Shown one piece after another: positions 17,193 through 18,976 of a DNA stretch of 64,000 nt; the stretch's first letter is position 1; every line of letters begins with the position of its first letter. The translations under genes were made by a program, and so were the position numbers. The stretch is from an uncultured Clostridium sp. (lineage in GTDB: Bacteria; Bacillota; Clostridia; TANB77; CAG-508): positions 21,882 to 85,881 of the forward strand of contig CAMMVE010000003.1 of the NCBI GenBank assembly GCA_946500265.1. Reading direction: 5' to 3'. The notes below the pieces were generated by a model. The model searched no databases. It saw nothing but the letters and a program-made list of their open reading frames with translations, and was not told where the DNA came from.

Positions 17193-17221
17193 TTGAAAAA
17201 GAAATGCTGTTAAGGTAGAAT
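17193..17221 (+). promoter_or_regulatory. Promoter of cassette copy 3 (TTGAAA-17-TAGAAT)
   Basis: -35 17193-17198, -10 17216-17221; A-rich UP-like tract upstream. Confidence 0.45.
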
Positions 17222-17563
17222 AAAGGCATACTAAGATAAAAAAAGTAAAAGGATTAAAAAAATACAAAGGAGAAAAAATGAGAATGCATAGAACCATTGA
17301 TACTGTAGAGAGAGAGAGAGAGAGAGAGTAGAATTTAGAGAAACTAGCTTTTTTTGTGATGCAAAAAAAGTAGTAAATATATTAAAGATAGAAACAATAA
17401 ATATATGTGCAAATAAAGCAGATTATCAAGAAGTATTAGGAGTTTTTGAAATTCTAATGCTAACGGATAGTCTGTTTTTTTGGTGAGTTTATTAAAAACA
17501 AAATAAAGAGATAATAATAAAAGAAAGATTAAAATTTTAAGAAAACGGAGGTACAAAAAGAAA
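17222..17563 (+). promoter_or_regulatory. 5' leader copy 3 (uORF 17278-17331 MRMHRTIDTVERERERE, (AG)11, GGATAGTCTGTTTTTTT 17464-17480)
   Basis: Diverged but alignable to leaders at 914 and 3976; same order of elements. Confidence 0.4.
17307..17328. repeat. (AG)11 microsatellite
   Basis: Perfect AG x11. Confidence 0.95.
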
Positions 17564-18976
17564 ATGAAAAAAACAGAAATAGTGAAAGGAATTACAGAAA
17601 AAAAGCAAAAATCAAAAGAACTTTACGGAACAAGAGGTATCACATTAGTAGCATTGGTAATAACAATAATAATCATAATAATACTAGCGACAGTAACAAT
17701 AAATATGGCATTTGGAGACGATGGTATCATAAAAAGAGCACAGCAAGCAGCAGATATGTATGCAAATGATACGGCATATACTGACCAAGCAATGGCAAAT
17801 GCGACAGCGTATTTAGATGAAATGTTAAATGGAGTAACAGGAGGGGGAGCAGACGAACCAGAAACTCCAGAAGTTCCATCGGACTGGGATTTGACAAAAG
17901 TGACACCAGTACTGTCAGAGGACAACCAATATGTCCCAGTGCCAAAGGGATTTACAGCATCAATAATAGATGGAGAGAAAAGTGTAAATGATGGATTCGT
18001 AATAAAGCAAGGAGATAATGGAGCAGCAACAACAGGAGTAAATGAATTTGTGTGGATACCAGTAGATGAAGAAAGTTTAGAAGAGATGTATAATACAAGC
18101 GCCCCAGGAACTGTATTAAGTAAAAGTACATTAAATGAGGAAACAACAACTACAGATGTATACAGTAATTTAAGGATTAGAAATACAGATAGTAGTGTTT
18201 TTATAGCTGGTAAGCCAGGTACGGTCAATTCAAGAGAACCAGATATAATACCTGATACAGAATTTGGAGATGCAGCGATAGGATATGACTATGCAGGAAT
18301 AGAGCCGATAAAAAATGTGTTAGGGATAACAGGAACGTATGTACTAGATGTATTGAAAAATTATTCACAGAGTTTGGTAAATGAATATCAAACTACATAT
18401 AGAAGTATAGAAAAATATAATGGATTTTATATAGGAAGGTATGAATTAACTGGAACAATAGAGAAACCAACAGTGCAAAAAGGAGAAAAAGTTATCGGAT
18501 CAGATTATACAATTAAGTGGTATCATTTAAAGAAAATGTGTATCGATTTAGTGAATACGGAATATGTTCAAACTGAAATGATATATGGAAATCAATGGGA
18601 TGAAGTAATGGACTGGCTGATAGAAACAGGAGAGAAAACGGAGAATCAAATAAATGAAGATTCAAGTAGTTGGGGAAATTATAGTAATTATAACCAAGTA
18701 AATGGATATGAAAGTGGAGACTCGGGGTATGTAGAAAAGGCAGGGACTGAAATTTTAACGTCAGGATTTAGTGAAAATTGGAAAGCAAATAACATATATG
18801 ATTTAGCTGGAAATGCTGCAGAGTGGACACAAGAGGCATTTGATACAAACATACGAAATGCTAGAGGGGGATTCTATTTCCCTTCAGGTATAGATATGCC
18901 GGTATCATGTAGATGGGGAAAATCCGTAGTTGACAATGAAGGAACTACAAGTCGTGTAACTATGATTATCAAATAG
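17564..18976 (+). CDS. Prepilin-like N-terminal anchor fused to FGE/SUMF1-type (formylglycine-generating-enzyme-like) domain protein
   Basis: GGAGG before ATG; N-term GTRG-ITLVALVITIIIIIILATVTINMAFGDDGII as in LRR genes; C-terminal ..FYIGRYE..GNQWDEVMDWL..AGNAAEWTQEAF..RGGFYF.. resembles FGE-sulfatase (DUF323) fold motifs. Confidence 0.8.
   Translation: MKKTEIVKGITEKKQKSKELYGTRGITLVALVITIIIIIILATVTINMAFGDDGIIKRAQQAADMYANDTAYTDQAMANATAYLDEMLNGVTGGGADEPETPEVPSDWDLTKVTPVLSEDNQYVPVPKGFTASIIDGEKSVNDGFVIKQGDNGAATTGVNEFVWIPVDEESLEEMYNTSAPGTVLSKSTLNEETTTTDVYSNLRIRNTDSSVFIAGKPGTVNSREPDIIPDTEFGDAAIGYDYAGIEPIKNVLGITGTYVLDVLKNYSQSLVNEYQTTYRSIEKYNGFYIGRYELTGTIEKPTVQKGEKVIGSDYTIKWYHLKKMCIDLVNTEYVQTEMIYGNQWDEVMDWLIETGEKTENQINEDSSSWGNYSNYNQVNGYESGDSGYVEKAGTEILTSGFSENWKANNIYDLAGNAAEWTQEAFDTNIRNARGGFYFPSGIDMPVSCRWGKSVVDNEGTTSRVTMIIK

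Follow-up and report, generated by a model that had tools for sequence, protein, structure and literature searches.

What are the proteins encoded by a set of genes that begin alike and end in unrelated domains? This question is raised by a 64,000-nt stretch of DNA from an uncultured Clostridium sp. (GenBank assembly GCA_946500265.1, contig CAMMVE010000003.1, positions 21,882 to 85,881), hereafter called the window, which has a GC content of 30%. A six-frame motif scan found exactly four copies of the motif G-ITLVALVIT(V/I)II(I/V)IIL(A/S)TVT in the window, at positions 1338, 4386, 17636, and 58639, which mark the four genes called copies 1 to 4 here (Table 1). Copies 1 and 2 encode leucine-rich repeat (LRR) proteins (Pfam LRR_5, E = 3.5e-71 and 9.5e-83, respectively). 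Copies 3 and 4 end differently, and a first-pass annotation of the same DNA had assigned them a domain resembling SUMF1, the formylglycine-generating enzyme (FGE), behind the N-terminal module of the LRR genes. We propose that copies 3 and 4 probably come from a very large family of lectin-type surface proteins of gut Clostridia that are targets of diversity-generating retroelements (DGRs), that the link to a DGR has been lost here, and that both copies have a three-part front end in common with the LRR genes.

The retroelement connection was found in relatives of copies 3 and 4, for which we scanned 80 loci from metagenome-assembled genomes (MAGs) of uncultured gut Clostridia. Many members of the family alignment looked frameshifted exactly at the C-terminal RGG motif, and the 3′ end of copy 4 is poor in adenine; a DGR variable region (VR) was therefore suspected there. 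In eight of the 80 loci, a second copy of the 3′ end of the gene lies approximately 0.4 to 2.4 kb away, with at least 90% of the mismatches at adenines of this second copy. In locus L011, the pair formed by the template repeat (TR) and the VR spans 143 nt with 26 mismatches, 24 of which are at A, and the cassette consists of the target gene (with the same GITLIALV N-terminus), an open reading frame (ORF) with a MutS_I domain, bAvd (Pfam, 1.3e-16), a reverse transcriptase (RT; RVT_1, 1.9e-22), and the TR. Locus L075 contains one TR and two VRs, and an RT-like ORF adjoins its TR; these were the two cassettes in which the RT was looked at, and it was confirmed by Pfam in L011. In loci L001 and L002, the 3′ ends of paralogues consist of an A-free, GC-rich scaffold and differ only at positions 1 and 2 of NNC and NNT codons. 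Among 45 non-redundant family genes, the median A content was 0.25 in the tail versus 0.43 in the body, and a single MAG carries about nine lectin-type genes. Judging from these sequences, the proteins called FGE-like make up a family of DGR variable (target) proteins, an identity that the first-pass annotation had overlooked.

According to a previous survey, the largest class of DGR targets contains a C-type-lectin VR inside an FGE-sulfatase domain, a MutS-like gene occurs as an accessory, and remote targets exist more than 100 kb from the RT (PMC5758913). Cellular DGR targets are mostly membrane-anchored binders, held by an N-terminal transmembrane segment (PMC8144416). In active relatives, the RT would copy the TR and rewrite the last ~45 codons of the target with errors at adenines only, and this rewriting of C-terminal codons would change the ligand-binding surface; the members of the family probably serve as adhesins. 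Separately, we noted that both DGR targets of L075 (5806-7125 and 9782-11032) have a basic tail and a plain transmembrane helix and lack the GITL motif; the lectin cargo is therefore also joined to another anchor.

We then considered the fold of the C-terminal domain. An AlphaFold model built from the family alignment reached a mean predicted local distance difference test (pLDDT) score of 76.7 and a predicted template modeling (pTM) score of 0.73. The best structural matches of the domain were TaqVP and TvpA, both DGR variable proteins; the top three Foldseek matches were all 5vf4 (TaqVP) and were weak (E about 0.2). In copy 3, the domain carries the motifs GFYIGRYE (18422-18445) and NNIYDLAGN (18788-18814), and FGE-sulfatase matched nine of 34 family members at E ≤ 1, with 35 bits for the relative at L010:14414. 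As modeled, the C-terminal domain has a C-type-lectin/FGE fold. Two observations count against this assignment. Every direct Pfam and NCBIfam match of copies 3 and 4 was below threshold, as were all FGE, pilin, and fn3 matches of the four window proteins; for FGE-sulfatase (PF03781), the check suggested in the first-pass annotation gave 12.5 bits (E = 0.12) against a cutoff of 23.3 for copy 3 and no match for copy 4. In addition, pLDDT was below 50 in the VR part of the model (residues 434-451).

The FGE-type motifs could be taken to mean that the domain is an enzyme anchored in the membrane, either formylglycine-generating (SUMF1-like) or of a related redox type, which we regard as extremely improbable. 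The stretch after RGG, which we take to hold the catalytic cysteine pair of FGE, has no conserved Cys in the family alignment (A2) and is hypervariable in the family; Cys residues of copy 3 are at 326 and 449 only, and it is exactly this stretch that the DGRs of the relatives rewrite. Moreover, the closest structures are non-enzymatic DGR variable proteins, of which TvpA carries the FGE motif and has no FGE activity (PMC5758913). Of the domain proposed in the first-pass annotation, the FGE-type fold thus stands, whereas the likeness to the SUMF1 enzyme does not, and the label "FGE-sulfatase-like" points here to binding domains of the DGR type and not to enzymes.

Within the window, no TR-like repeat was found by sensitive blastn of both 3′ ends and an A-bias self-comparison, nor was any RT or Avd found in gene tables and Pfam scans of the same 64 kb. 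Copies 3 and 4 could still be active remote targets of a DGR elsewhere in the chromosome, in the manner of the DGR of Treponema denticola with its seven remote targets, and this is improbable in our estimation. Targets more than 100 kb from an RT are documented (PMC5758913), no RT lies within 10 kb of the textbook VRs in the relatives at L001 and L002, and copy 4 keeps an A-poor scaffold rich in NNC and NNT codons, all of which would suit such a remote arrangement. What speaks against it is the constancy of both copies. The exact copy-3 protein was present on 182 contigs from independent assemblies, and the full-length variants compared in its cluster had one or two scattered differences, none of them C-terminal (one shorter product is truncated near its end); hence, neither the 182 contigs nor the variants contained any variation confined to the VR. 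The VR-equivalent of copy 3 has 34% A and 38% GC, compared with family medians of 25% A and ~50% GC, the family motif SSRPALY reads TSRVTMII, and conserved residues are encoded by A-containing codons (AGA, GGA, and TCA), which adenine mutagenesis would scramble. The VR of copy 4 was identical in six samples. Since an active cognate DGR would vary even the VR of a pseudogene between samples, we read both copies as former DGR targets, copy 3 being frozen and intact and copy 4 dead. The viral collection and the JGI metagenomes were also scanned with the VR scaffold of copy 4, its variable sites set to N; there was no TR-like match, which says little because even copy 4 itself was not recovered. 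Two points must be held against the former-target reading: the case for a DGR ancestry of copies 3 and 4 is built on homology and composition, with no cognate TR, and the absence of DGR components covers the visible 64 kb, with a DGR elsewhere in the genome being possible.

In this reading, copy 3 is an intact protein of fixed sequence whose former VR has drifted to ordinary AT-rich codons, and copy 4 is a fixed pseudogene that still has the A-poor scaffold. Such a difference offers a compositional test, in which an A-poor scaffold indicates a DGR target that is active or was so recently, and re-equilibrated codons indicate one that has decayed. From the N-terminus onward, copy 3 consists of a basic tail, a class III-like hydrophobic helix, a linker that is helical and rich in Pro and Glu, a stalk rich in beta structure, and the FGE-type C-type-lectin fold.

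Copy 4, listed among the genes in the first-pass annotation, is not intact and contains two frameshifts. The extra C at 58717 (TTTcGGAGAT) closes its frame, with FGDDGIIKKAQ readable in the next frame only, and the second frameshift, near 60050-60080, precedes the original end, ...ISFRTQLYVK* at 60116. The 439-amino-acid product was identical on at least 23 contigs, and six independent copy-4 loci from different samples had the same 5′ frameshift and an identical 3′ A-poor region including the second frameshift. Copy 4 is therefore a real fixed pseudogene and not a sequencing error. The FN3-like insert attributed to it could be located (~58889-59140); its Pfam fn3 match (E = 0.036) is below threshold.

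Related lesions were seen elsewhere in the family. About 10 of the 45 non-redundant genes have the ending ...RFSSHFNNK..., produced when the conserved GSRPTLY strand is read with a one-base shift inside the VR; such endings occur among loci L047, L051, L060, L071, L072, L026, L040, L050, and L069. As in copy 4, VR frameshifts are thus frequent in the family and could be retrohoming damage or assembly artefacts. Many very short ORFs of 44-121 amino acids that consist of the N-terminal module alone were also found among database matches (P0135-P0185), some in up to 14 member sequences, which suggests that truncation or frameshift just past the module is widespread, as in copy 4.

We next turn to the front end of the four genes, which would comprise a sigma-70-type promoter, a leader with a (GA)n tract, and a class III-like N-terminus. 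The genes at 17564 and 58609 do start with the same N-terminal motif as the LRR genes, as first claimed: the LRR genes and copy 3 are identical at 20 of 22 positions in the hydrophobic stretch and at 30 of 38 positions through FG(D/E)DGII, copies 3 and 4 compared with each other yielded the same values, and all four genes are connected through the DNA repeat families D2, D10, and D13. Upstream of all four genes, at a distance of 313-402 nt, lies a conserved block, ACTTGAAAAA..TAAG(G/A)TA(G/A)AAT, and the block at 17193 probably acts as a promoter. The exact form TTGAAA-N17-TAGAAT occurs three times in the window (17193, 58296, and 37352) versus 0.41 expected, a count reached in one of 100 shuffles. 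A promoter of this form had been ascribed to all four genes; it is exact at copies 3 and 4, whereas the LRR genes carry TAAAAT and not TAGAAT at −10. The third exact block (37352-37380) was considered as a fifth family member and rejected. It precedes a DUF6922/AbiEii (type IV toxin-antitoxin) pair (ORFs 37480-37896 and 37900-38550) and sits between asnS and the S10 ribosomal operon, with neither a family gene nor a (GA)n leader.

The leaders of copies 1 to 3 align well and consist of a small ORF, a (GA)10 tract, and a hairpin, the tract lying within the small upstream ORF, M..(T/I)(V/I)D(T/I)V(RE)n. Copy 4 retains its promoter and the beginning of this ORF, the tract is reduced to (GA)3, and there is no clear terminator hairpin, such that the leader described as related in all genes is well conserved in three of them. 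That description treated the region merely as a shared leader and missed both the polymorphic (GA)n in the small ORF and the frame that crosses the hairpin. At the copy-3 locus, n was 10 here and in one other assembly, 9 in another, and 3 in two more. The small ORF of copy 3 has 17 codons at (GA)10 and 68 codons at n = 9 (locus L006), where it is joined to the long frame. A (GA)n small ORF also precedes family genes at more than 20 other loci, with n = 7 to 14. Past the tract, two frames stop within 10 codons and the third runs for 36-52 codons, ending in or just after the hairpin and T-run. A frame as long as the 52-codon frame of copy 3 appeared in 33 of 5000 shuffles, and the long third frame was rare in shuffles of each leader type (0.7-4%). 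Folding of the copy-3 leader gave a minimum free energy of −40.2 kcal/mol (z = −4.77). In silico, a long frame overlapping a hairpin is a layout common to at least five divergent leader types. A search of the leader against Rfam returned only spurious microRNA matches below threshold.

This layout resembles that of pil1 in Streptococcus gallolyticus, in which the number of GCAGA repeats determines how long a leader peptide is and ribosomes translating the long peptide destabilize a terminator (Danne et al. 2014, PMC3894217). By analogy, the leader would work by ribosome-dependent antitermination: with the small ORF in the long frame, a ribosome would cross the terminator-like hairpin and transcription would continue (ON), and with the small ORF in either of the other frames it would halt at once (OFF). 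Copies 1 to 3 of the window would then all be in the OFF frame. Some observations are unfavorable to this interpretation. Repeat lengths were read from assemblies, which can miscount dinucleotide repeats; a simple terminator scan of 17100-19500 made no call, and the hairpin was found by folding, the scan being silent on the hairpin at 17415 because its loop is long; and some relatives (L007 type) have a poor T-run. In four relatives (L010 from 18036 onward, L054 ~283, L066 ~9274, and L048 ~3396), the long frame reads into the main ORF, with the tract inside the main ORF before GITL. Going by its position, such a tract is an ordinary in-gene phase switch in the N-terminal leader, and the family would thus have two architectures of the same switch.

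The N-terminal module is found far beyond the window. An exhaustive profile search yielded 27,867 cluster representatives (E ≤ 1e-3; 6,910 at E ≤ 1e-10), in all of which the module is N-terminal, in proteins of 52-1818 amino acids; this search was used in place of an earlier one with a 70-amino-acid module, which had given only fragment ORFs of 44-121 amino acids. Among 75 long matches, the cargo included fn3 (17), LRR_5 (6), DUF285 (5), RCC1 (3), Big_2, GDSL lipase, and PKD, and 10 matches were of the lectin type. The initial idea of one expression or anchoring module combined with unrelated cargo therefore holds, with many more cargo types than the window contains.

The N-terminus, a basic leader ending in Gly followed by about 21 hydrophobic residues with Ala at +5, would anchor the cargo outside the cell. 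Copy 3 fits the class III pattern as defined previously (PMC8179133), i.e., a hydrophilic leader ending in Gly and then about 21 hydrophobic residues (...YGTRG / ITLVALVITIIIIIILATVTIN). The family shows no variation at Gly, Thr at +2, Leu at +3, and Leu at +6. Ala occupies +5 in 88 of the 95 ORFs from the related loci and in 129 of the 133 top database matches (~97%), and Glu does so once. The likeness to a class III prepilin signal with Ala at +5, as stated in the first-pass annotation, holds only at the level of the motif. Of the checks proposed with it, Pfam N_methyl (PF07963) did not match copies 3 or 4, and the search for a prepilin peptidase, which covered the window and 1.42 Mb of related loci, detected neither such a gene nor pilus genes; the peptidase signature GGGD(V/I)K(L/F) gave no peptidase in the 1.42 Mb. 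The sole module copy with Glu at +5 belongs to a 607-amino-acid protein (L070, 11328-13151; KGITLIELIVTI...), which passes the N_methyl threshold and may link the module to canonical pilins; it was all that a scan of these loci for canonical Glu5 pilins returned.

Two explanations of the module compete. The module might be a true type IV pilin module, in which case a prepilin peptidase would cut the proteins behind the Gly residue and they would sit at the tip of a type IV filament, the lack of Glu5 marking the first (tip) subunit; phase variation would then choose which cargo is displayed. We consider this doubtful, with some points in its favor. Besides the class III pattern and the invariant residues, N_methyl gave matches at E ≤ 1 in 24 of 34 family members, the best of them at 1.2e-4, with two relatives above the gathering score (22.2 and 22.3 versus 21.2 bits), and the family profile matched type IV pilins in the PDB (7tgg, E = 0.0019; MshA and PilA, 0.05-0.08). 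The tip pseudopilin GspK likewise has no Glu5. In addition, pilins of modular build that carry a grafted adhesive module have been described, and a position at the tip is proposed for them (PMC8179133). A classical pilin is disfavored by the predominance of Ala at +5, by leaders that are long and variable (4-58 residues, median 15), and perhaps by the model, in which helices 26-50 and 55-89 (low confidence) and a disordered linker are followed by no beta-sheet pilin head packing on the helix. The lack of prepilin peptidase and pilus genes in the window and related loci scanned and the presence of about nine lectin-type copies in one MAG also run counter to a pilin. Alternatively, the module could be an uncleaved signal-anchor with type II topology, its prepilin likeness being convergent or vestigial, a reading that is plausible and falls a little short of an even chance. 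It accords with the hydrophobic helix of 22 residues that follows the basic tail and behind which the family alignment shows no conserved site for signal peptidase I, with the lack of Glu5, with the anchoring of most cellular DGR targets by an N-terminal transmembrane segment (PMC8144416), and with the L075 relatives, in which the same cargo is preceded by a plain transmembrane segment of unrelated sequence. Nevertheless, nothing in a plain anchor would require G, T, L, and L to stay invariant and in place among 27,867 clusters, and L070:11328 keeps Glu5 and passes the N_methyl threshold. On balance, cleavage of the module by a prepilin peptidase has roughly equal chances of being right or wrong.

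Each component of the locus is of a known kind. We found no description in the literature of a carrier superfamily with Ala at +5, of an attenuator with (GA)n, or of two variation devices acting on one family. More speculatively, and with reservations that outweigh our confidence, the data could be viewed as part of a wider system: tens of thousands of prepilin-like carrier clusters with Ala at +5 would present interchangeable cargo at a filament tip or membrane, two independent hypermutation devices would act on the same genes, in that the (GA)n attenuator would select the paralogue to be expressed and the DGR would rewrite the lectin surface, and the window would be a decay series. If so, copy 4 would represent the active-type scaffold, now broken, and copy 3 a frozen intact binder that is possibly still used after loss of the DGR. 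The copy-3 protein has more than 4,800 relatives and about 28,000 clusters carry the module; in both groups none is named and almost none has a Pfam match, and the present analysis offers a function-level reading for such families. Should the module with Ala at +5 undergo prepilin-type processing, its carriers would amount to a large new class of adhesins, modular and pilin-like, in human gut bacteria that are abundant and uncultured.

Table 1. Positions of the features of the four gene copies within the window.
Feature	Position	Strand	Remarks
Copy 1, BspA-type LRR protein with shared N-terminal module	1287..3251	+	Putative promoter 885-913; (GA)10 at 1075-1094
Copy 2, BspA-type LRR protein with shared N-terminal module	4335..6308	+	Putative promoter 3947-3975; (GA)10 at 4121-4140
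Copy 3, sigma-70-like putative promoter	17193..17221	+	TTGAAA-N17-TAGAAT; part of longer conserved block ACTTGAAAAA..AATGCT..TAAGGTAGAATAA (family D13)
Copy 3, upstream small ORF	17278..17331	+	MRMHRTIDTV(ER)n; at (GA)10 stops at TAG adjoining the tract (predicted OFF)
Copy 3, (GA)10 tract	17308..17327	+	
Copy 3, alternative 52-codon frame after the tract	17328..17486	+	Crosses the hairpin; ends at TGA 17484-17486, past the T-run
Copy 3, long stem-loop followed by T-run, terminator-like	17415..17481	+	Hairpin itself ~17415-17477
Copy 3, intact gene	17564..18976	+	470 amino acids
Copy 3, shared N-terminal module	17636..17731	+	Gly25, ITLVALVITIIIIIILATVTIN, FGDDGII
Copy 3, predicted FGE-type C-type-lectin-fold domain	18326..18973	+	Residues ~255-470; boundary approximate
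Copy 3, VR-equivalent, decayed	18830..18973	+	
Copy 4, promoter-like site	58296..58324	+	TTGAAA-N17-TAGAAT
Copy 4, upstream ORF	58356..58484	+	MKIDKTLDTVERYN...; (GA)3 remnant
Copy 4, N-terminal fragment with shared module	58609..58725	+	38 codons; ended by extra C at 58717
Copy 4, remainder of pseudogene	58718..60116	+	ORF called 58760-60079 (439 amino acids)
Copy 4, VR-like segment	59960..60116	+	22-28% A versus ~45% in gene body; NNC/NNT codons, GC-rich scaffold

Several further observations concern the surroundings of these genes. Copies 1 and 2 form a recent tandem duplication (1251-6308) with repeats 3048 nt apart, and are 95% identical in the 5′ 300 nt and ~72% identical in the LRR body. 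The copy-1 protein has one database record, at a contig end and also with n = 10, and a database look-up of the copy-2 protein returned no record; at locus L093, a short-read assembly stops right after copy 1. A PD-(D/E)XK "transposase" gene or remnant (Pfam PDDEXK_2, Rpn-like; 6795-7703, 19495-20292, and 60650-61045) follows three of the four cassettes, and the duplicated unit therefore seems to extend from the promoter through the nuclease gene (families D4, D5, and D18). The gene is intact after copies 2 (1.9e-45) and 3, and a C-terminal remnant, 85% identical, is left after copy 4; the nuclease might promote recombination between cassettes. Palindromic intergenic repeats of ~35-70 nt (TTGAACnnAAgGGACACTCC...) at 15265-15330, 32098-32163, 33035-33177 (in tandem), and 63509-63581 look like elements of the repetitive extragenic palindromic (REP) or terminator type. 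Finally, a ~91-nt repeat occurs in three copies, 63-73% identical, in the ribosomal-protein/SecY region (46048-46138, 47187-47277, and 52766-52856).

Compared with human FGE/SUMF1 and its paralogue SUMF2 (PDB 1y4j; Pfam PF03781), the C-terminal domain has the same overall fold as modeled and the motifs (Y/F)DLxGNxxEW and RGG, and one relative of copy 4 is above the Pfam threshold; unlike these proteins, the family here lacks the conserved catalytic Cys pair, the equivalent stretch is hypervariable, and the window proteins are below the threshold. The leader shares with S. gallolyticus pil1 a short tandem repeat in an upstream leader ORF that sets the length of the ORF, the long form of which overlaps a stem-loop terminator, predicted here, upstream of a gene for an adhesin or a pilus. 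In place of the GCAGA of pil1, the repeat here is (GA)n, the hosts here are uncultured Clostridia, the target genes encode pilin-like single proteins here and a sortase pilus operon there, and in some relatives here the tract lies in the main ORF; the system described here is known from sequence. An attenuator that combines a repeat with a leader peptide has been described only once, in a single Streptococcus species, and would thereby extend to a dinucleotide repeat and to many gut Clostridia.

The anchor of the window copies is a pilin-like helix, whereas TvpA is a lipoprotein. Unlike TvpA (Treponema denticola, PDB 2y3c) and TaqVP (Thermus aquaticus, PDB 5vf4), the window copies have no nearby TR or RT and are invariant between samples, and they add a beta-rich stalk and a putatively phase-variable leader, with an fn3-like insert in copy 4. 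PilB and PilC of Streptococcus sanguinis (PMC8179133) likewise combine a class III-like N-terminus with a grafted adhesive module, one carrier serving many cargoes. PilB carries Glu at +5 behind a leader of 7 residues, has a pilin head that is folded, and is known to be cleaved by PilD, whereas the module here has Ala at +5, leaders of 4-58 residues, no predicted pilin head, and putative processing. A further parallel is offered by the type V pilus adhesins of gut Bacteroides (bioRxiv 10.1101/2024.11.15.621889), which are also proteins of gut commensals in which a DGR varies the adhesive part of a pilus-related surface protein; they belong to another phylum and another pilus type, and differ from the window copies in that the latter are no longer diversified.

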